Virus record (IMG/VR): IMGVR_UViG_3300048597_000462
Coordinates: 1 to 55,997 of that record
Reading direction: 5' to 3' (one strand)
Length of the DNA: 55,997 bases
From: a virus
Taxonomy: Duplodnaviria; Caudoviricetes
Shown: in pieces, positions 7,099 through 50,243 of the stretch
Position numbering within the stretch: the first letter of the stretch is position 1
Layout: every line of letters begins with the position of its first letter
Notes under the pieces: generated by a model
Database searches by the model: none
What the model was told of the DNA's origin: nothing
The model's input: the letters and a program-made list of their open reading frames with translations, nothing else
Position numbers and translations under genes: made by a program

Positions 7099-7887
7099 CT
7101 AGGAGTCACCTAAAAGCAACTGGGTTCCTTGAGCCTTGCGGTACTGCGCCCAGAGTTCTTTCACTTTGCGAATATTTTCAGTGGGAATGTAGGGAGCCTG
7201 AACAGCACGGAAACCCTCACAGATTAGCCCTTGATGCTTGATTTGGGTTAACCATTGCTCAAACTGCTTCCCTGTTTTGAAGCCTAGTTCTCGCCCTAAA
7301 TCTGCGGTGGATTTACCCTCAAAGCTAACATTACGACCATTTTGGCAAATAACAGTCTCGGTAATCTTCTCTACCTTTTCCACTACGGCATCGGGGCGAC
7401 CTTGGATTAAAGCCAGAACTTGCGGGCCGTGCAAGTTCATGATGACTTCTGATTTCTCCATGATGAAACGCTGGTCAGACATCATGGAAGCATTCGCCGT
7501 GGCAATGTCAGCATGTAGCTTCATCAACTCAATTTGCTGAGTAAATTCCGGGTTAACCTTTTCGGCTAACTTCCACTTTTTCTCTACCTCGATAAAGTAT
7601 TGGCGGATAGCTTCCCCCTCCGAGGTCTCGGACATTAGCCCCAAGTGCTTTAAGCCATCGCAAGAAAGATGGATTTTTTCAACGGGGCGACCGCCGGTCT
7701 TTTCCACCGATTTGTGGTAAAGCTTGCCCTGAGAGGATTTCGGCAGTTTTCGCTTAGCCGAGTCCTTCCGGGAGTAACCTGTGATTTTCCATGCAACATC
7801 AAAATCCACTGGAAACTGATTGCCGTTTTGCTCGGCTTCATACCAGCTATCAATCAACGAAAAAATATCAGACGATACTATATCCAT
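7099..7887 (-). CDS. AntA/AntB-type antirepressor-like protein
   Basis: FPVDFDVAW..GY..K..AKRKL ... GEAIRQYFIEVEK; C-terminal half paralogous to 23191-23985. Confidence 0.8.
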   Translation of the reverse strand: MDIVSSDIFSLIDSWYEAEQNGNQFPVDFDVAWKITGYSRKDSAKRKLPKSSQGKLYHKSVEKTGGRPVEKIHLSCDGLKHLGLMSETSEGEAIRQYFIEVEKKWKLAEKVNPEFTQQIELMKLHADIATANASMMSDQRFIMEKSEVIMNLHGPQVLALIQGRPDAVVEKVEKITETVICQNGRNVSFEGKSTADLGRELGFKTGKQFEQWLTQIKHQGLICEGFRAVQAPYIPTENIRKVKELWAQYRKAQGTQLLLGDS

Positions 7888-8016
7888 AGACTGTTACCTC
7901 ATGGGGGTAATGGTTAAAGTCCTCCGGCTGACACCGGGGGCACACTTTATTGTAACTCACACAAACGTAGCGGTTTTTCGCATCACACCACCGCCGCCCA
8001 CCCTATAGATCAACGA

Positions 8017-8178
8017 CTAATCGCCAGGGTTGGACTCTTTTTCCTTGTCCACCATTTCCGCCAGCAACAGTTCGATGAGATTGCTAAGACTACGACGTTT
8101 GCGCTGGGCTATTCGCTCAGCCTCTTTTTTTAGATCCTCGGGGATGTATGCTCCCACTCTTGCTTTTGCAGTTGCCAT
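8017..8178 (-). CDS. ribbon-helix-helix (Arc/CopG-like) regulator
   Basis: RVGAYIPEDLK ... RSLSNLIELLL. Confidence 0.8.
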   Translation of the reverse strand: MATAKARVGAYIPEDLKKEAERIAQRKRRSLSNLIELLLAEMVDKEKESNPGD

Positions 8179-8256
8179 AAAAACTCCCAGTGCTTGTGCC
8201 AAGGTATCAATACCTAGCGACATTATAACAGACTCCGCCTTAATCCAGTGATAGAC

Positions 8257-8286
8257 TTGACAAAAGTAACACTACCTCGCTACATT
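8257..8286 (+). promoter_or_regulatory. sigma70-type promoter
   Basis: TTGACA-18 nt-TACATT. Confidence 0.7.
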
Positions 8287-8415
8287 AGAAGCATAGAGAA
8301 ACGGACAACCCGCCGCAAGCTCAGAGTTAACCAAAGGGTAGATACAACAAAGCGATAGCCGCCCGTGGAAAGAACGCTATCGCCCTGTAAATCCATTTAG
8401 AAAAGGATTACGACC

Positions 8416-8673
8416 ATGTTAAGTCCGATTGATCATTACCAGCAAGTAGAAATGACCGTAGCCGAAGCTGACTCGCTTCAGGCTGACCAGTTCGAGGCTC
8501 AGGAAATCAGCAAAGGGCAGTGGGATGCCATCACCGCTCCCTTCATGCAGAATCTTCTAGCTAGCGGCAAGTCTAGCGCCTACTGGGAAGGTTTCATCTC
8601 CGAGTTGGCAGACCGAGCGGGAGTGAGCTTTGCGCTTTTCCCCCAACCCCATCTAACTGCCGACGAATTTTAA
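8416..8673 (+). CDS. small acidic protein, paralog of 49199-49450
   Basis: Aligns end to end with the 49199 product; AAGG ribosome-binding site. Confidence 0.8.
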   Translation: MLSPIDHYQQVEMTVAEADSLQADQFEAQEISKGQWDAITAPFMQNLLASGKSSAYWEGFISELADRAGVSFALFPQPHLTADEF

Positions 8674-8686
8674 TCAACCATTACCG

Positions 8687-8706
8687 GGGGCTTAGTGCCC
8701 CTTTTT
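8687..8706 (+). terminator. intrinsic terminator or attenuator
   Basis: GGGGC-TTAGT-GCCCC-TTTTT. Confidence 0.55.
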
Positions 8707-8709
8707 CTA

Positions 8710-9414
8710 ATGATTTCAATCAATGAGCAAGAGCAAGTACGGGCATGGTTAGAAGCTGAACGGAAAGGCGATCGCTTCCCCGTCGACTTTGACATCGCCT
8801 GGGTGATGGCTGGTTATGCAATGAAGCACCATGCAAAACGCCGGTTAACTAATCAGTCATCCTATCTGGTTTTGAATGAGGATTACAAAATAGACAAAGG
8901 GGCTGTACTTATCACCCAATCGGGTGAATCGACGATTTCTGGTCGTTCTAGCGACCGGATAGTAATGACTTGTGATGCTTTTAAACATTTCTGCCTCATG
9001 GCGCAAACTGCCAAGGGGCGTGATGTCCGGCAATATTTCATCGAAGCAGAAAAAACATTGCTAACATCCATCCCCACCTGTCAATTGTTAAACGAGGAAC
9101 TGCAAAATCTCCGCCAACAGTTGGCAAGGGCACAGCGACCGGCTGAGTCTGGCAAGTTTCAACTGCACTGCGACAAACTCCCCACCACCTACCGCTATAC
9201 CCTGGCGGTTCAGGTAAGCGAGACTCAATATATTGAGTTAATGCACTACACCCTGCCAGAGTGGATTGCCCAGGAAACTGACTATGAGAAATTCAAAGTC
9301 CTCCACAAGGCGGCGATAGAACCCATCACGGAGTTGATGCGGATGCTAAACCGGATGAGCCGGGAATTTACCCCGATAGATAAACCGGCGATCACCCGAT
9401 ACGCTAACCGATAA
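8710..9414 (+). CDS. AntA-type antirepressor-like protein
   Basis: FPVDFDIAW..GY..K..AKRRL ... GRDVRQYFIEAEK. Confidence 0.78.
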   Translation: MISINEQEQVRAWLEAERKGDRFPVDFDIAWVMAGYAMKHHAKRRLTNQSSYLVLNEDYKIDKGAVLITQSGESTISGRSSDRIVMTCDAFKHFCLMAQTAKGRDVRQYFIEAEKTLLTSIPTCQLLNEELQNLRQQLARAQRPAESGKFQLHCDKLPTTYRYTLAVQVSETQYIELMHYTLPEWIAQETDYEKFKVLHKAAIEPITELMRMLNRMSREFTPIDKPAITRYANR

Positions 9415-9421
9415 ATTACTG

Positions 9422-9447
9422 ACCCCTGGCATTAGCTGGGGTTTTTT
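9422..9447 (+). terminator. intrinsic terminator
   Basis: ACCCCTGGC-ATTA-GCTGGGGT-TTTTT. Confidence 0.65.
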
Positions 9448-9769
9448 AGCGAATAGGCAACATATTAAACTGAGGGCAAGTAAGGTTGATATAGCGAAAC
9501 ATCCCGTCAAGATAAGACCTAGGGGCGGGATTGTCCGGGTTTTGGCGCAAAACATAAGCAAGAAATCCCACCCATGATTGCTCTTCATATTGCATAAAAC
9601 TACTTACTGCCATTTCATTAACCTCTGATTGGGTTCGACTCAATGGCAATGCCCGACAGCAATGAAAACCCATCATTCCACCCAATCTAAATGTCAGATT
9701 AGGATCTTTAGCCGCTTCTGGGTACGGAATAGTTTGAGCCATCAATATTCCCGCCAACAATATATCCAC
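9446..9769 (-). CDS. hypothetical protein
   Basis: 107-aa ORF. Confidence 0.55.
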   Translation of the reverse strand: MDILLAGILMAQTIPYPEAAKDPNLTFRLGGMMGFHCCRALPLSRTQSEVNEMAVSSFMQYEEQSWVGFLAYVLRQNPDNPAPRSYLDGMFRYINLTCPQFNMLPIR

Positions 9770-10222: not shown

Positions 10223-10909
10223 ATGGAGAATTTGATTAAAGCATTGGTTAAGGCTCGGTCTGAGTTTGACCGGGTGACGAAGGATAGCAATAACCCTTTC
10301 TTTAAAAGTAAATATGCTGACCTAGCGTCAGTAGTAGCGGCAATCACCCCAGCACTATCCGCCAATGGTCTGGTGGTGACTCAGCCCATTGTGACGATTG
10401 ACCCTACGCTATCCCCGATACTACCCAAGCCGGTAAAAACGGAAAAGTCGGAATCTCCAGTGGATGTCCCTATGACGACCATAGGGGTTTTAACCCAGGT
10501 ATGGCATGAGTCTGGAGAAAAGCTGGAAAGCGTCTTCCCTGTTCCCCCCATGGAAGACATCCAAAAGGTGGGATCTGCGATCACGTATATCCGCCGGTAT
10601 GCCCTGTCATCTTTGTTGGGGGTTGCCCCGGAGGATGATGATGGCAACGCCGCCAGTCAAGGTAACAATGGCAATGGTAACGGTGCGGTAAAAAAGCCTG
10701 CTAACGGCACCATCAGCCGTGAAGAATGGCTCAAAAAGCAGGGCAAGACTGCCCCGCCGCCCAAGCCAGAAGTTCCCAAACCATTGGCTCCCAAGGACGT
10801 TCAGGCATTAAAGGAAGATTTGGGAGTTGCCCCGGAGTTACCCAAAGTGGAAGCACCCCCCAAGGCTACAGTTCCGGCAACTGTGCCTGATGATGAGCCT
10901 CCCTTTTAA
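10223..10909 (+). CDS. ERF-family single-strand annealing protein
   Basis: NPFFKSKYADL, HESGE, QKVGSAITYIRRYAL, EDDDGN. Confidence 0.92.
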   Translation: MENLIKALVKARSEFDRVTKDSNNPFFKSKYADLASVVAAITPALSANGLVVTQPIVTIDPTLSPILPKPVKTEKSESPVDVPMTTIGVLTQVWHESGEKLESVFPVPPMEDIQKVGSAITYIRRYALSSLLGVAPEDDDGNAASQGNNGNGNGAVKKPANGTISREEWLKKQGKTAPPPKPEVPKPLAPKDVQALKEDLGVAPELPKVEAPPKATVPATVPDDEPPF

Positions 10910-10984: not shown

Positions 10985-13543
10985 ATGCTTCAATTGCGAG
11001 ACTATCAAGAAAAGGTCAAGCGTGACCTTTACACTCTAGTCAGGGAAGGTTTTAGCAAAGTATTGGTTGTGGCCAGCACCGGGTCGGGCAAGTGTCTGGG
11101 GAAAGGAACCCCGGTCATGCTGTATGACGGCACAATCAAGCCAGTAGAAGAAATCAAGGTAGGCGATCAACTAATGGGCGACGATTCTACCCCCCGGACA
11201 GTATTAAGCCTGGCAAGGGGGCAGGAAGAATTGTTTAAGGTAACGCCGGTCAAGGGGGATTCATGGGTATGCAATAAATCGCATATTCTATCCCTCGTCT
11301 GTAATGCTAAAAAAGGAGCCTTGCAACACGGTCAAATTTACGATATTCCTGTTGGGGATTACCTCGAACTAGGGCGAACCCACAAACACGTTCTAAAGCA
11401 ATATCGAGTGGGTGTTACTGAGTTTGGCAACAATAGCGGCGATCTCCCTGTAGATCCATGGCTGTTGGGATTGTTCATCGGGGATGGGCATAAAACAGGC
11501 AATTCATTTCATCTCAATGACACCACAAAGATTGATGTTGCGGTTAAAGCTTCATCGGTATTAGTCGATTCAGGGTTTAGCCCTTCATCAAGCAGGGAAG
11601 GGAGTGCCCATGGAGTCCGACTTGGTATTCGCATGAATACCGCAACAGAAAGGTTTATCTATTTTGTGAGGAGGGCATGGGACGGTGAAATACTTAACGC
11701 CCACAACATTTACATCCCTCACAAGTACAAGACATCATCTATTGAAAACAGACTTGCATTATTGGCTGGGCTAATAGACTCTGATGGAAGCTTTGATGGA
11801 ATGTGCTTTTCATTTTCTACCGTCAGCGAGTCACTGGCGGATGATGTGTGCTTTGTTGCCCGTTCACTGGGACTTGCCGCCTATAAAGCATTTCGGGCAA
11901 CAAAATGTGATGGCAAGTCCTTCCCATCATTTCGGGTTAGCATTAGTGGCGATTTGTCCGGTCTGCCTTGCGCCCGGTGGCAAACGTCTGAGCGTAAGCA
12001 GATAAAAAGTGTTTTACGCACAGGCTTTTCTATTGAGTCGCTGGGTGTTGGCGATTACTATGGCTTTACTATTGACGGCAACCACCGATTTTTACTAGGG
12101 GACTTTACCGTTACCCATAACACCGAAACAGCCGTATCAATAGTGGAGGATGCCCTATCCAAGGGGAGGCGGGTTGCCTTTGTTGTCCACCGGGATAACC
12201 TAGTCAGGCAGACCTTAGCCCGGTTCCAGAAATATGGTCTAAACCCATCGGCGGTAAAAGCAGGATTTAAACCGGACTATGACAATCCCTGTCAGGTGGT
12301 CAGTTTACAGACAGTGGTACGGCGCAAAAATGCCCTGCATACCCTGGAGGACATCGCCATCTATGACGAAGCCCACATCACCGCTTGGTCAACGCTGGGC
12401 AAAGATTTAATCACCAATAACGCCCACCGGCTCACCATCGGGTTGACTGCCACACCTTGGCGGTTGTCCAAAAGGGAGGAAATGGGCGATTTATTCTCCG
12501 AGGTGGTGTGCGCTCCATTGCCCGCTCAGTTAATTGAGAAAGGGTTTTTGGTGCCGCCCCGGTACTTTGGGCTGGATGGCATTGATACCAGCGAGGTTAG
12601 AACCACCGCCGGAGATTTTAACCTGGGAGACTTGGGCGTTTTAACCAATGACCCCGAGGTGGTACAAACCGCTGTCAGAGAATGGCTACGTTTGGCTGAG
12701 AACAGAAAGACCATTGTATTCTGCGTGAACGTTGCCCACTCTCAGGCAATCGCCCGTGAGTTTAACCGTCAGGGCATCCCCGCCGCCCACGTTGACGGCA
12801 CCATGGACTCGGTTAAAGAGTGTCAGCCACTATATGACAAGCTAGCCAAAGGTAAAATCAAGGTCATTAGTTCTTGTGAGAAACTCTCGGAGGGCTTTGA
12901 CGTGCCGGATATTGGCTGTGCCATGCTGTGCCGTCCTACTAAGTCCAGGGCAAAATACGTTCAACAGATTGGTCGTGCCCTACGGATATTCCCCGGCAAA
13001 AAAGATGCGATAATCCTCGACCAAGCTGGCAACGTTCCCCGCCATGGCTTTGTGGAGGATTTAACCAAAGCTGATTTCAGGTTGTATCTTTCCACCGATG
13101 CCCCAAAGGGGGAGCCGCCAGTTAAAGAGTGCGAGTGTTGCCATGCCCTGGTCAGAATATCCGCCAGGGAATGCCCAGAGTGTGGCAACCCCTTTCCCAT
13201 TAAGGAGCGGGAAAAGGCAGTGGGGCAATTGACTGAGTTGCGGCAACCTATACTGGTTGAATCAGAGCTACCCTATCGCCATCAGCAGTACCGGCAATGG
13301 CGTTGGGAAGCGTACAAAAAGGGTATTGCACCGGGCTATGCCATGGCAAAGTACAGGGAAATCTATGATGATTGGCCACCCAACAACCTATCCCTGGGGG
13401 CAGTGTTTAAGGGCAAAAATGATGACAAAACCCAAAAGCACTTTCTAAACTACCTGGAAAGAATTGCCATCAAGAAAAGCTGGGATAAAAAGAAAATCAC
13501 CCAAGAATTTACTAGGGAATTTGGCTTCCCCCCGGCAATATAA
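10985..13543 (+). CDS. superfamily 2 (DEAH) helicase containing an intein
   Basis: LRDYQ, TGSGK|T, DEAH, TAT, EGFDVP, QQIGRALR, C-terminal zinc finger. Confidence 0.93.
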   Translation: MLQLRDYQEKVKRDLYTLVREGFSKVLVVASTGSGKCLGKGTPVMLYDGTIKPVEEIKVGDQLMGDDSTPRTVLSLARGQEELFKVTPVKGDSWVCNKSHILSLVCNAKKGALQHGQIYDIPVGDYLELGRTHKHVLKQYRVGVTEFGNNSGDLPVDPWLLGLFIGDGHKTGNSFHLNDTTKIDVAVKASSVLVDSGFSPSSSREGSAHGVRLGIRMNTATERFIYFVRRAWDGEILNAHNIYIPHKYKTSSIENRLALLAGLIDSDGSFDGMCFSFSTVSESLADDVCFVARSLGLAAYKAFRATKCDGKSFPSFRVSISGDLSGLPCARWQTSERKQIKSVLRTGFSIESLGVGDYYGFTIDGNHRFLLGDFTVTHNTETAVSIVEDALSKGRRVAFVVHRDNLVRQTLARFQKYGLNPSAVKAGFKPDYDNPCQVVSLQTVVRRKNALHTLEDIAIYDEAHITAWSTLGKDLITNNAHRLTIGLTATPWRLSKREEMGDLFSEVVCAPLPAQLIEKGFLVPPRYFGLDGIDTSEVRTTAGDFNLGDLGVLTNDPEVVQTAVREWLRLAENRKTIVFCVNVAHSQAIAREFNRQGIPAAHVDGTMDSVKECQPLYDKLAKGKIKVISSCEKLSEGFDVPDIGCAMLCRPTKSRAKYVQQIGRALRIFPGKKDAIILDQAGNVPRHGFVEDLTKADFRLYLSTDAPKGEPPVKECECCHALVRISARECPECGNPFPIKEREKAVGQLTELRQPILVESELPYRHQQYRQWRWEAYKKGIAPGYAMAKYREIYDDWPPNNLSLGAVFKGKNDDKTQKHFLNYLERIAIKKSWDKKKITQEFTREFGFPPAI
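11093..12121 (+). mobile_element. intein with LAGLIDADG homing endonuclease
   Basis: Begins CLGKGT, ends VTHN followed by T; LGLFIGDG and LAGLIDSDG motifs; 343 aa. Confidence 0.93.
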
Positions 13544-47229: not shown

Positions 47230-47793
47230 ATGTCATTTGCAAGCATTACCCTCGGCGGAACGGTTCTTTCAGTCGAACGAAACGACAAGCGAGTTGAAGC
47301 CCGGTTCCAGCCTGACACCCCCCACGCCCCCGAGCTGACCATCTCCGGCTACGGCGAGATAGCTGACAAATTAGAACAGTTGGTAGGTTCTCCCTCTGTT
47401 ATTGCCGGACAGATAAAACATTTACACGCTAATAACACATTTACTATTGATGTTAGTGACGCATGGGTTTCTGCTCCGTTTGGTAAGCCAAGGGCGATGG
47501 TATCTCTGGTGGGGCGGTATAGCGACCGATACGCCGAGGATAAAGGGGAGGCTTACAAGTTCCAGGTAAGTTATCCGTCGGGGCTGAAAAAAGATGATGG
47601 TGGCAATGCCTACTTCAATTGGCGGGTTACCACCTTTGGGAAAACATCAGAGAACATTAAGAAATTTTTCCAGGATGGAAAGACCATTGGCATCCCCCAG
47701 GGGGAGTTGCAGTGGTATGCCACTGAGGACAAGTTATACTTGTCGGTAACCGCCCGCACTTTTACGTTTGTAGGAGGACGGACGGATGATTAA
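47230..47793 (+). CDS. ssb: single-stranded DNA-binding protein, probably two OB folds
   Basis: SLVGR ... WRVTTFGKTSE..G..I..QGEL; similar pattern in the N-terminal half. Confidence 0.65.
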   Translation: MSFASITLGGTVLSVERNDKRVEARFQPDTPHAPELTISGYGEIADKLEQLVGSPSVIAGQIKHLHANNTFTIDVSDAWVSAPFGKPRAMVSLVGRYSDRYAEDKGEAYKFQVSYPSGLKKDDGGNAYFNWRVTTFGKTSENIKKFFQDGKTIGIPQGELQWYATEDKLYLSVTARTFTFVGGRTDD

Positions 47794-48661
47794 GGTTAAC
47801 CTATCCATGGCTCGCTCCCTGCAAAAGGCACTTTTGAACACTGACGAGCAGTTACGACTGTTCGAGGAATTTTTGCCACTGCGGGAAGCCCTCAAAGCCG
47901 AGTTAGCCCGACGCAATGGTGGAGTAGACCCCTTTGCCCAGCTAGAGCTTGACCTGGGGGTAGAATCAACGGCAAAGCGCAGGTCTCCCCGGACGGTTTT
48001 CTCCGGTGGTTACCGCAATCTAAACTTGCATCAGGTCTTTCAATCCTTGCCTCGGACAAAGGAGTTGGTCAGGGCACGGCGGGCACAGGAGAAATTAATT
48101 GAGCGTAATATGCCCATGGCGGTCAATTATGCCCATAAGTGCTATCAGGCTAAAAAGCAGATCAACGTCAACGGTGATGACTATGCCCAGGTGGGGTGTC
48201 TGGGGCTGACCTACGCCACCTATCACTACCAGCCCATCGCCAAGGGTAAGCGGGTGAAGTTTTCCACCTACGCTCAGTTCTGGATTAAAGCCCTCATTCT
48301 GGAAGAATTAAAGTCCAATAAACTGATTAAATCCAACAAAGGGGAGCGGGAACCAGTCTTTTACACCGAGGTGAAGGATGGAGATGGCAACTATGCGCCC
48401 ATCTTTGAAACTTTGGAAATTGAGGATGAGCCTAGCCTTGCCGATCAGTTGACCATGGTGGTGGATGGCAGGGCAACCCTACGCCCGGAGATTACCGCCC
48501 AACTGACCCCGGAGGAGAACAATCTGCTCATCCTGGACCTTGGTAGCCCGTTGATGGTTTCTGCCATGCTGGGACTACCTCTGGGGCAGGATTCCTTGAC
48601 GGTGGCCAGGGAGCGCAAAGCCAAAGCAGTGGACAAGCTCAAAACCCTACTGTCAGCCTAA
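47786..48661 (+). CDS. sigma70-family (region 2) phage sigma factor
   Basis: QEKLIERNM.MAV..A, DDYAQVG.LGL, KFSTYA.FWIK. Confidence 0.75.
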   Translation: MIKVNLSMARSLQKALLNTDEQLRLFEEFLPLREALKAELARRNGGVDPFAQLELDLGVESTAKRRSPRTVFSGGYRNLNLHQVFQSLPRTKELVRARRAQEKLIERNMPMAVNYAHKCYQAKKQINVNGDDYAQVGCLGLTYATYHYQPIAKGKRVKFSTYAQFWIKALILEELKSNKLIKSNKGEREPVFYTEVKDGDGNYAPIFETLEIEDEPSLADQLTMVVDGRATLRPEITAQLTPEENNLLILDLGSPLMVSAMLGLPLGQDSLTVARERKAKAVDKLKTLLSA

Positions 48662-48754
48662 GTTAAAATACACACAGAGCGTGGTTAAACTCGTTCTGTT
48701 TGTGTACCGTGAACCCCCTCGCTCCGGTCAGGGGGTTTGCGTTTTCTGGGGCTT

Positions 48755-48967
48755 TTAATCCATTCCCAATAAATCGGCAACAGAGCAACCCAAGGCTTTG
48801 CATATGCCGTCAATCTCAGCTCCGCTAACTTTAGGCATTTCGTCAACTGTTCGCCACCTAGAGATCGTGTTGGGATGAACACCTAGGCTGTTAGCTAGCT
48901 CAATATTTCCTATCCGTTTATCCGCCATTAACTGGCGCAATTTCCATTTAACCAATGTTATAGCCAT
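48755..48967 (-). CDS. Cro/XRE HTH regulator
   Basis: WKLRQLMA...ELA..LGVHPNTISRW ... ICKALGCSVADL. Confidence 0.88.
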   Translation of the reverse strand: MAITLVKWKLRQLMADKRIGNIELANSLGVHPNTISRWRTVDEMPKVSGAEIDGICKALGCSVADLLGMD

Positions 48968-49049
48968 GTTTGTGTACCTTGATTATCGGTGATTTGACAC
49001 TTTCATTTTAGCGTCACACCAAAAAAAGACTCAATAAAACAAAAAATAG

Positions 49050-49078
49050 TTGCATAACACCATTTTTGGTGTTATAGT
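49050..49078 (+). promoter_or_regulatory. promoter with perfect operator palindrome
   Basis: TTGCAT-17 nt-TATAGT overlapped by ATAACACCA-TTTT-TGGTGTTAT (49054-49075). Confidence 0.8.
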
Positions 49079-49198
49079 AGGAGGTGTGGAGACAGGAAGC
49101 GCCCTGCAAGCCAAAAGTTAACCAAAGCGCAAAGCGACCGCATTCTTTTGCAGGGACGGCGATCGCCTTGTAAACCTATTTCGTAAAGGTCTAGCACT

Positions 49199-49450
49199 AT
49201 GTTATCCCAGATTGATTATTACCAGCCTACGGAAATGTCGTTGCAGGAAGCCGACGAGTGCCAAGCTGATGCTTTAGAGGCTGAATACACCAAAGGTCAG
49301 CGGGAAGCTATTAACGCTCCCTATATTAGCCGCTTTGCTGGTCACAGCCCAGAGTGGTGGGCAGGATTTTTGACTGAGTTGGCAGATCGCAATGGCGTTA
49401 GCTTTGCCTGCTTCCCTCAGCCTCAATTATCTAAGCCTGAAGAATTTTAA
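49199..49450 (+). CDS. small acidic protein, paralog of 8416-8673
   Basis: MLS.ID.YQ..EM...EAD..QAD ... KGQ..AI.AP ... W.GF..ELADR.GVSFA.FPQP.L. Confidence 0.8.
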   Translation: MLSQIDYYQPTEMSLQEADECQADALEAEYTKGQREAINAPYISRFAGHSPEWWAGFLTELADRNGVSFACFPQPQLSKPEEF

Positions 49451-49490
49451 TTGTCATTGCTTATGTTTACAAACATTGGGAGCGTCAAAA

Positions 49491-50243
49491 ATGGAATTGC
49501 AAAAATTCTTGTCTAAGTTGCCTGATTATGCTCAAAAAGAATTTTCTGATGATGGTTATATTTCTCTGCGAGGACTAGGGCGACTTTGTGGTATCAGACA
49601 TGGAGCCTGGAAACGAAAAGATTGGGTTTTTAACAAAAAAATAGACGAAATGCTACTCCAAAACAACCTAAATATTTCTACAGTTATATCTGATAAAGGA
49701 ATTTATTTTGATGTTGCATTGGTGGTCATTTCTTACTACGCTTACAAATCTTCAAATAACTCTACACTGAAGGCTAAAAAGCTGATGGCAGAGTTAAATG
49801 GATTAGAGGTATTTTCAGTGTCCCCCAAGCCACCGTCTCACAAAGGATTTATCTACCTAATCCAAAACGCAAATACAGGCAATGTGAAAATAGGTTATTC
49901 AGCAAATCCTTGCAACCGATTGGCAACTCATCAAATATCAACTGATTGCGAATTGCGATTGCTGGCGCATAGAAAAGGAAGCCAGCCGGAAGAGCGACAA
50001 CTTCATAAAAAGTTTGCCGATTATCTTGTTCGTGGTGAATGGTTTTGTCCTGCAACTGAGATTATGCTTTACTTTGGTATTGCTCAAGACACTGAGACAT
50101 TACAGGCAAAAAGAGCGGTGGCGCAACTAAAAACTATTCAGGATAGCCTGTGTTTTTGCCGTCAAACATCTTATCTAACAGAAAAAGGTATTGATAATAT
50201 ACTTCAATCCCTTGATGTTGCAATTAATCTATTAGCTAAATAA
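49491..50243 (+). CDS. T5orf172/GIY-YIG-like domain protein
   Basis: GFIYLI..VKIGYS.NP.NRL ... E..LH.KF..Y.VRGEWF. Confidence 0.82.
   Translation: MELQKFLSKLPDYAQKEFSDDGYISLRGLGRLCGIRHGAWKRKDWVFNKKIDEMLLQNNLNISTVISDKGIYFDVALVVISYYAYKSSNNSTLKAKKLMAELNGLEVFSVSPKPPSHKGFIYLIQNANTGNVKIGYSANPCNRLATHQISTDCELRLLAHRKGSQPEERQLHKKFADYLVRGEWFCPATEIMLYFGIAQDTETLQAKRAVAQLKTIQDSLCFCRQTSYLTEKGIDNILQSLDVAINLLAK

Follow-up and report, generated by a model that had tools for sequence, protein, structure and literature searches.

What is the function of a transcript leader that stands twice in one viral genome, each time beside a different repressor and ahead of a different third gene? The question is raised by positions 8017-9414 (cassette 1) and 48755-50243 (cassette 2) of the IMG/VR virus record IMGVR_UViG_3300048597_000462, a stretch of 55,997 bases referred to here as the window. 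The leader opens with an H-type pseudoknot that is a previously undescribed RNA motif, absent from Rfam, and continues into hairpins that pair better on the opposite strand. Each cassette is proposed to control an early operon of the antirepressor type in a temperate cyanophage, through four layers that would include a predicted antisense RNA; on the sequence evidence, this is regarded as roughly an even call. To our knowledge, temperate cyanophages and their lysogeny switches are almost unstudied. The control region described here is concrete and compact, combines an RNA fold unlisted in Rfam with a candidate antisense regulator and an orphan early protein, and recurs in phages and prophages of bloom-forming freshwater cyanobacteria.

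The leader pseudoknot

The original prediction, which was made from the sequence of the window, described a divergent RHH regulator, a strong promoter, a leader of about 125 nucleotides (nt) containing GCAAGC and AGTTAACCAAAG, two stems of which one covers the ribosome-binding site, and an acidic open reading frame (ORF) of 85 amino acids (aa). All of these are present (Table 1). The promoter matches the consensus at 10 of 12 positions and is the sole promoter-like site within 7800-9600. GCAAGC lies at 8316-8321 and AGTTAACCAAAG at 8325-8336. The leader is indeed structured, but the prediction missed the pseudoknot that holds these two elements, and its two stems pair better on the opposite strand.

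In cassette 1, the outer helix of the knot is GAG/CUC (8296-8298 / 8320-8322) and the inner helix is CGG/CCG (8302-8304 / 8313-8315). The knot helix is ACCC/GGGU (8308-8311 / 8336-8339), with the conserved joiner AGUUAACCAAAG. In the general form of the element, two short stacked helices (xGG/CCx and CGG/CCG) flank an AAA/CAAG internal loop, and the hairpin loop can pair with the next four to six bases after the invariant joiner. This complementarity occurs in nine sequence versions. Eight were found by script (ACCC/GGGU, GCGC/GCGC, GCAC/GUGC, GGAA/UUCC, GCAUUU/AAAUGC, GCAU/AUGC, GCAUUA/UGAUGC and ACAUUA/UAAUGU) and the ninth, AUGCAC/GUGCAU in locus L154, was found by eye.

The stacked helices were assessed on an alignment of 13 sequences, in which 92% of cells are paired and compensatory changes occur at four of the six pairs. 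This covariation was reached by none of 500 shuffles, and slid controls were only 23-52% paired. The compensatory variants include CAG/CUG, GGGC/GCCU and GGGG/CCCC, with CAA/UUG and CAAC/GUUG in loci outside the alignment. Compensatory changes also separate copy 2 of the knot from copy 1. Covariation supports all three helices of the predicted fold. A covariance model (CM) restricted to the pseudoknot, CM R2, scores copy 1 at 64.4 bits (E 4e-17) and copy 2 at 59.4 bits (E 1e-15). In all loci, the distance from the -10 box to the beginning of the knot, as read from the sequences, is 0-14 nt.

A search of the whole window against Rfam 15 at gathering scores gave zero matches. With the threshold relaxed to E 10, the best matches in the leader (E 1.7-7.7) were to unrelated families and at chance level. 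In locus L007, Rfam returned only unrelated families within an ORF, the best at E 0.023 and 22.9 bits against a gathering score of 70.7. At the level of listings and abstracts, the literature on cyanophage antisense RNA and antirepressors and on pseudoknots and RNA motifs of cyanobacterial prophages does not describe the leader element, and the motif string itself retrieved only unrelated human-genetics matches.

The possibility that the conserved leader encodes a leader peptide is rejected on account of an in-frame stop at 8356-8358 in cassette 1 and by 1-nt indels between the cassettes. A search of the window for trans targets of the 12-mer AGTTAACCAAAG found no convincing complementary site (14 matches with up to two mismatches, against 6.3 expected), and exact matches to the 12-mer are confined to the two leaders. 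The pseudoknot model also has a weak match at 10819-10855 (+), inside the ERF recombinase gene around AGTTACCCAAAG, with 17.7 bits and E 0.004; this is probably a chance match.

Hairpins that favour the opposite strand

The segment between the knot and the start codon folds into two hairpins, termed H1 and H2. On the minus strand, H1 is an anti-Shine-Dalgarno hairpin and H2 is a long G·U-containing hairpin (8346-8388 in cassette 1). The minus-strand fold of cassette 1 has an energy of -25.4 kcal/mol (z -4.65), against -16.4 kcal/mol on the plus strand. The corresponding values for cassette 2 are -23.9 kcal/mol (z -3.1) and -17.6 kcal/mol (z -0.8). Two clean hairpins and a U-rich tail are formed by the minus strand of this segment in all six loci compared, where z-scores range from -3.1 to -6.1 on the minus strand and from -0.3 to -3.7 on the plus strand. 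The consensus fold computed by RNAalifold for the minus strand contains 22 pairs, at -26.3 kcal/mol. For the plus strand it contains only 13 pairs, at -14.1 kcal/mol, and a C·A mismatch falls within the 8-bp stem in four of the six sequences.

When four helices are annotated on alignment A6, all 137 cells are paired on the minus strand and 23 of them, in six column pairs, are G·U there and A·C on the plus strand, with no instance of the reverse; the helices had been extended by the analyst on the minus strand, which biases these counts towards that strand. In each of 11 sequences, H2 taken alone folds more stably on the minus strand, at -15 to -24 kcal/mol compared with -9 to -17 kcal/mol on the plus strand. 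Overall, the minus-strand fold is 5-19 kcal/mol more stable than the plus-strand fold. In alignment A9, which has 11 rows, the minus-strand stem runs straight into TTT without exception and the next 8 nt hold four to six T by eye, while most rows have no comparable run after the stem on the plus strand.

The start codon of the first gene lies in the context ATGNTA or ATNATG. The reverse complements of these, TANCAT and CATNAT, hold A2 and T6 of a -10 box. By eye, one or other hexamer stands 5-8 nt before H1 in 16 of the 17 loci with H2 or a hairpin equivalent to it, and in seven of eight unrelated first-gene groups. Among ATG ORFs of 90 aa or longer in the window, the start-codon pattern has a background of 8 of 62.

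The two stems of the original prediction thus fit the minus strand better, and the strand asymmetry is shown. The stems are more likely to be parts of an antisense RNA than mRNA stems that sequester the Shine-Dalgarno sequence, as judged from these folds. Locus L003 has a simple hairpin in place of the pseudoknot but carries the anti-Shine-Dalgarno H1 and a long hairpin, which is 10 kcal/mol stronger on the minus strand. The converse is seen in loci L145 and L168, where the pseudoknot is present and H2 is absent, so that the pseudoknot and the predicted antisense part are separable.

Portability of the leader

The leader core is near-identical in the two cassettes, in the phage or metagenome contigs L004, L007 and L010, and in L011, which belongs to a Snowella metagenome-assembled genome (MAG). 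This near-identity is above chance, because the cassette proteins are only 55% identical and synonymous sites in the ORF are saturated elsewhere. A covariance model of the leader core, CM R1, found further copies in one genome (G072; loci L032 and L038) among 89 of the Snowella family, in a sample of 151 genomes of the order (L039, L040 and L041), and among 61 genomes of a second cyanobacterial family (L143, L144 and L145/L146). A class-wide sample of 151 genomes yielded nothing new with the same model. At E below 1e-9, CM R2 matched 7 of the 61 genomes of the second family and 2 of the 89 of the Snowella family.

One genome, G393, has four copies of the pseudoknot (L145, L146, L168 and L169). 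Two of these are on identical stretches and three are without the hairpin made of the cyanobacterial HIP1 palindrome (GCGATCGC), a pattern that suggests several related prophages or mobile elements. Five weaker CM R1 matches were rejected: L033, L034 and L036 are bare HIP1 pairs, and L035 and L037 have only an H2-type hairpin. Pattern scans of IMG/VR gave nearly all chance matches, and cmsearch found no copy in 100 of the 101 loci added by one of these scans (L042 excluded).

Three types of divergent repressor stand beside the leader element: RHH, XRE of the HTH_26 type, and HTH_31/HTH_3. Behind it are at least eight unrelated groups of first genes, in IMG/VR contigs and cyanobacterial genomes; these include an unrelated 73-aa protein and a Cys-rich protein, among others. 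The 73-aa and acidic families, which are the two best-sampled, show no homology in hhalign (probability 0.4%). The repressors have candidate operators of their own at the promoters (a 28-nt direct repeat in cassette 1 and a perfect 9-4-9 palindrome in cassette 2), and the leader is therefore not their operator.

These observations support and extend the earlier view of the arrangement as a portable regulatory module. The recurrence of the layout in cassette 2 with another repressor and another third gene also stands, with the correction that both cassettes encode small proteins of a single family.

Proposed mechanism

In the proposed mechanism, the divergent repressor (RHH in cassette 1, XRE in cassette 2) would bind its own operators at the sigma-70 promoter. 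The rightward transcript would begin, within a few bases of its start, with the pseudoknot, the structure of which is supported by covariation. Its most likely partner would be a conserved factor of host or phage, or else a small ligand, through which the knot may set how stable the early transcript is and how it is elongated or translated. In the stretch from the knot to the start codon, the minus strand would encode an antisense RNA of about 70 nt, consisting of the anti-Shine-Dalgarno hairpin and then the G·U-rich hairpin, with the U-tract after the latter as its terminator. The -10-like hexamer over the start codon may drive this RNA, whose transcription and function are both putative. Similar to the sar RNA that acts on ant in P22, it would pair with the ribosome-binding region and block translation of the first gene, leaving the operon silent in lysogens. 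The cargo of the operon is the small acidic protein, behind which cassette 1 carries an Ant-like gene and cassette 2 a T5orf172 gene.

Several points weigh against this interpretation, in addition to the bias in the cell counts. About 20 sequences are available overall and several are closely related. For single sequences, support for the knot helix is modest, with the observed length reached by shuffled loops in 1-74% of trials. The pseudoknot gives split strand signals, with two possible G·U pairs in L032 and L143 speaking for the plus strand and two end positions in L011 and L040 for the minus strand. The -10-like antisense hexamer was recognized post hoc, is weak and has no convincing -35 partner, and the consensus scan of 7800-9600 found no minus-strand promoter at threshold. 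The strong promoter on the plus strand means that the same bases are also an mRNA leader, for which a role on that strand is possible, and H1 in its plus-strand form does cover the Shine-Dalgarno sequence. The minus strand is rich in G and U, which favours folding in general; the z-scores, which were taken against dinucleotide shuffles, argue against this as the full explanation without removing it. Lastly, the arms of H2 are copies or near-copies of HIP1, which has 20 copies in the window and is 20-fold over-represented there. Two copies of HIP1 pair automatically.

A further-reaching version, which is considered doubtful, is that the knot defines a class of regulatory RNA that is new and is carried by phages. 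It would act as a riboswitch-like sensor, or would bind the polymerase or the ribosome, and would read a conserved host signal at the first bases of early transcripts. Together with the antisense RNA it would form a two-key lock on the lysis-lysogeny (antirepressor) genes of temperate cyanophages, and the unit would move between phages as a cassette that captures repressors and cargo. If the knot binds a host factor or metabolite, host physiology would be linked to prophage induction. The antisense RNA, if real, would be an independent reinvention of the logic of the P22 and P1 immI regions in a distant phage lineage. The module could also serve as a ready-made expression cassette with swappable repressors for cyanobacterial synthetic biology.

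Alternative explanations

The alternative that survives best, although it is somewhat unlikely, is that the acidic protein is the unit that matters. It would be a small antirepressor, a DNA mimic or an anti-defence protein, made first upon induction, and the leader would be an ordinary 5′-UTR. The gene is real and is the first of the operon, and the phage carries two paralogues of it. Its 85-aa product has 13 D+E against 3 K+R, and the isoelectric point lies between 4.1 and 4.35 across all six copies. Pairwise dN/dS values of 0.07-0.34 among the six copies indicate purifying selection, with synonymous sites near saturation (pS 0.53-0.85). The family is conserved down to 30-46% identity across the two cassettes and L004, L007, L010 and L011, with a conserved N-terminus of MLSxID.Y, a core of W/G/F/R in the centre and a C-terminus that is acidic and aromatic (..EF, ..WF or ..EW). 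Small antirepressors exist in other phages, according to a preprint (bioRxiv 10.1101/2025.11.23.689978).

Against this, conservation is much stronger in the leader than in the protein, and the leader also stands ahead of unrelated genes, which makes the protein cargo of the module and not its obligatory partner. The same protein family also occurs next to three repressor families, which argues against the binding of a specific repressor. No family, structure or partner has been assigned to the protein. Searches with hidden Markov models, which the original prediction had suggested, found no family for it in Pfam, PHROG or NCBIfam, and a sequence profile found nothing in PDB. The ESM Atlas held nothing usable for the 85-aa protein, its own model having a pLDDT of 0.47. 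A word-index search gave one relative. An exhaustive profile search of 1.84 billion representatives returned four proteins at E up to 0.001: the query, two true relatives and one spurious match, P0004, which is a repeat protein that aligned in 13 short stretches. Further copies were found by the locus searches in L003, L004, L007/L009, L010 and L011. GenBank phages (protein and DNA) and PLSDB plasmids gave no match.

It is unlikely, to a slightly greater degree, that all helices belong to the plus-strand mRNA leader and that no antisense RNA exists. The knot would then be an aptamer-like sensor, and the stems GCGAUAGC/GCUAUCGC and AAUCC/GGAUU would be the expression platform that gates the Shine-Dalgarno sequence, as in a riboswitch or a protein-dependent switch. 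A consensus promoter lies directly upstream, the knot is at the 5′ end of the transcript and H1 pairs with the GG of the Shine-Dalgarno sequence on this strand. Strongly conserved unpaired bases next to covarying helices are typical of aptamers, and the order of aptamer, hairpin and Shine-Dalgarno sequence is that of a riboswitch. The folding results speak for the other strand. On the plus strand, H2 has two flanking A·C pairs in addition to the C·A mismatch in four of six sequences and is followed by no U-tract, and the segment of H1 and H2 folds with the weaker z-scores given above. Plus-strand folds of the whole leader have z-scores from +1.9 to -1.8 and in several loci are no better than shuffles. 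There is also no match to a riboswitch of Rfam.

A third explanation concerns the function of the knot only and is compatible with an antisense RNA. The knot may be a cis-acting RNA for processive antitermination, like put of phage HK022, which would modify RNA polymerase on its way out of the early promoter and let it read through the hairpin at 8686-8708 into the Ant-like gene. The knot lies immediately behind the early promoters, with two copies per phage genome and one per early operon. It is conserved irrespective of the type of repressor and cargo, as would be expected if its partner were the host RNA polymerase. A terminator-like hairpin does separate the first and second genes of cassette 1. 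This hairpin had been called a terminator in the original prediction, and it has a T-run in cassette 1; in the relatives the T-run is not kept and cassette 2 has no equivalent. The hairpin is retained in four of six homologous loci (cassette 1, L004, L007 and L010), with a variant in L003, but the T-run is absent where the stem is kept in L003, L004, L007 and L010, and so occurs in one of six loci only. In L011, a good terminator stands behind the first gene, with unrelated genes beyond it. The put RNAs are two stem-loops and not a pseudoknot. Antitermination is improbable on this balance.

It is highly improbable that the conserved bases act as DNA, with the HIP1-like palindromes and the GTTAAC core as binding or methylation sites (for example, a roadblock operator) and the helices as by-products: the H2 arms are HIP1 or one-off variants of an over-represented palindrome, GTTAAC is palindromic and operator-like direct and inverted repeats lie nearby, but three nested or knotted helices covary with many sequences, which a protein site would forbid, all mismatches are of a single type, the one tolerated by RNA on one of the strands, the arms in cassette 1 and L004 diverge from HIP1 yet remain complementary, and the element is constant while the repressors vary.

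Layout of the two cassettes

The features on which the proposed pseudoknot and antisense control is based, together with the neighbouring genes, are collected in Table 1.

Table 1. Coordinates of the features of cassettes 1 and 2 in the window
Feature	Position	Strand	Basis or description
Cassette 1			
Ant-like paralogue, second gene of the leftward (repressor) operon	7099..7887	-	PHROG anti-repressor families, E 2e-7
Divergent RHH (CopG/Arc-like) repressor gene	8017..8223	-	Pfam RHH_5 and PHROG Arc-like repressor
Two 28-nt direct repeats, candidate operators	8201-8228 and 8263-8290		Repeat search; 79% identical
Sigma-70-type promoter	8257..8286	+	TTGACA (8257-8262), 18-nt spacer, TACATT (8281-8286)
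Leader pseudoknot, copy 1	8296..8339	+	H-type, ~45 nt; covariation and CM R2
Predicted cis-antisense RNA	8342..8410	-	Anti-Shine-Dalgarno hairpin H1 (8390-8409), H2, tail UUUGUUGUAU
Stem GCGATAGC/GCTATCGC	8352-8359 / 8376-8383		Read from sequence
Stem AATCC/GGATT	8390-8394 / 8405-8409		Read from sequence
Shine-Dalgarno AAGGA	8403-8407	+	Covered by the AATCC/GGATT stem
-10-like hexamer TAACAT, candidate antisense promoter	8416..8421	-	Reverse complement of ATG TTA, 6 nt upstream of H1
Acidic orphan protein, 85 aa	8416..8673	+	ORF list; isoelectric point 4.08
GC hairpin and T-run between small ORF and Ant-like gene	8686..8708 (hairpin 8686-8702)	+	Terminator scan
Ant-like gene	8710..9414	+	Alternative GTG start 8695; PHROG 'anti-repressor Ant' families, E 1e-7
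Terminator closing the rightward operon	9424..9441	+	Terminator scan
Cassette 2			
Divergent XRE repressor gene	48755..48967	-	Pfam HTH_26, E 2e-15
Promoter	49050..49078	+	TTGCAT, 17 nt, TATAGT; read from sequence
Perfect 9-4-9 palindrome, candidate XRE operator	49054..49075		Over the promoter spacer and -10
Leader pseudoknot, copy 2	49087..49130	+	UGG/CCA, CAG/CUG, GCGC/GCGC
Predicted antisense RNA, copy 2	49127..49193	-	H1 49172-49192, H2 49131-49171
83-aa paralogue of the acidic protein	49199..49450	+	55% identity to the 85-aa protein, E 2e-30
T5orf172/MUG113 (GIY-YIG-like) domain gene	49491..50243	+	Pfam PF13455 1e-8, PF10544 2e-7

The RHH repressor of cassette 1 scores 27.7 bits in Pfam against a cut-off of 26. 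An extended -10-like box, TGTTATAAT, overlaps the annotated ATG of its gene. Translation may in fact begin at the ATG at 8178 (Met16); this codon has GGGAG as its Shine-Dalgarno sequence and would give a protein of 53 aa. The 28-nt direct repeats lie one over each of the divergent promoters, and are predicted to function as operators.

The second gene of the rightward operon had been described as AntA-like. Its product matches PHROG anti-repressor families, and Pfam has no match above the cut-off for it. Its homologues carry the JGI name 'phage anti-repressor protein'; one distant homologue has PF08346 (AntA) and one has PF09669. The stop codon of the small ORF (8671-8673) is 36 nt from the ATG of the Ant-like gene, with the hairpin in between and no visible translational coupling. 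The hairpin is conserved as the sequence CCATTACCGGGGGCGTAATGCCCC (8674-8708 of the window; L004, L007 and L010). The CATTAC on its 5′ side is complementary to a GTAATG in its loop and 3′ side, which makes two mutually exclusive hairpins possible.

The leftward operon consists of the repressor and then a second Ant-like paralogue, an arrangement found in the window (7099-7887), in L003 (3-827) and in L007 (5740-6573). The product of 7099-7887 has an N-terminal motif in common with that of 8710-9414, so that an Ant-like gene with this motif is present in each of the divergent operons. In L148, a locus with the Ant-like paralogue type, the leader motif was not found.

Cassette 2 differs from cassette 1 in its repressor (XRE HTH_26 against RHH) and in its third gene (T5orf172/MUG113 against Ant-like), and the small proteins are paralogous. 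Its promoter matches at 8 of 12 positions, below the threshold of the promoter scan. Directly upstream of the cassette is a gene with a Sigma70 region 2 domain (47786-48661, +; E 7e-6), followed by a terminator-like hairpin at 48721-48736. Just beyond the stop of the small ORF lies a promoter-like site on the minus strand (49472->49444; TTGTAA, 17 nt, TAAAAT; 9 of 12). It could start a long antisense transcript that covers the small ORF and runs to the H2 hairpin, and falls within the number of such sites expected by chance.

Elsewhere in the window, the helicase gene at 10985-13543 (+), with ResIII and Helicase_C domains, contains an intein that combines a Hint domain with a LAGLIDADG homing endonuclease (Pfam). 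The intein is inserted just after the GSGK of the Walker A motif.

Comparison with known systems

The original prediction likened the layout to that of acr-aca operons. There is a likeness, in that a small acidic protein comes first behind a strong promoter and a small HTH or RHH regulator adjoins it. In the present case, the regulator is divergent, lies upstream and has a promoter-like site of its own, and is not the last gene of the same operon. The comparison therefore fails, as the regulator is not co-transcribed downstream.

The knot itself can be compared with the H-type knots of the preQ1 and SAM-II riboswitches. These are likewise small and stand at the start of an mRNA, with a loop that pairs with a 3′ segment and an A-rich joining strand. 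Unlike them, the leader knot has no sequence or CM match to any Rfam class, and its position in phage early or antirepressor operons with varied cargo points to no metabolite. The leader knot resembles small H-type riboswitch folds in outline only.

The immI region of P1 and P7 has the order c4 RNA, icd and ant, and that of P22 has the order mnt, Pant, arc and ant, with the sar antisense RNA. As in P1 and P7, a promoter, a structured RNA, a small ORF and an antirepressor would follow one another here, with an RNA that is predicted to inhibit at the ribosome-binding site. In contrast to the same-strand c4, the pairing signal is on the opposite strand, and no Rfam family is matched at threshold on either strand. 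The small ORF, for which the original prediction had considered an icd-like leader protein, also ends 36 nt before the Ant-like start, neither overlapping nor abutting it. According to a review (PMC12197685), the c4 RNA of P1 (approximately 77 nt) is cut from the strand of its own target, acts through pairing between its loops and the target, and inhibits translation at the ribosome-binding site, while in P22, sar (68/69 nt) pairs with the mRNA and blocks translation of ant.

With respect to P22, there are five differences. The first gene has no Arc-type RHH match in Pfam, PHROG or NCBIfam, and the predicted antisense RNA covers the ribosome-binding site of this gene and not that of ant. Cassette 2 has an XRE repressor and a T5orf172 gene, and most related loci have an XRE-type helix-turn-helix. 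There is an extra pseudoknot at the 5′ end, and no Rfam family is matched at threshold, including sar if it is in the library. There are also likenesses. In cassette 1, a divergent RHH repressor is predicted to bind at a strong promoter, an antirepressor-like gene comes behind a small first gene, and a short two-hairpin antisense RNA, which is predicted to lie over the ribosome-binding site, is of the size class of sar. By this analogy, the functionally closest systems would be the immI regions of P22 and P1.

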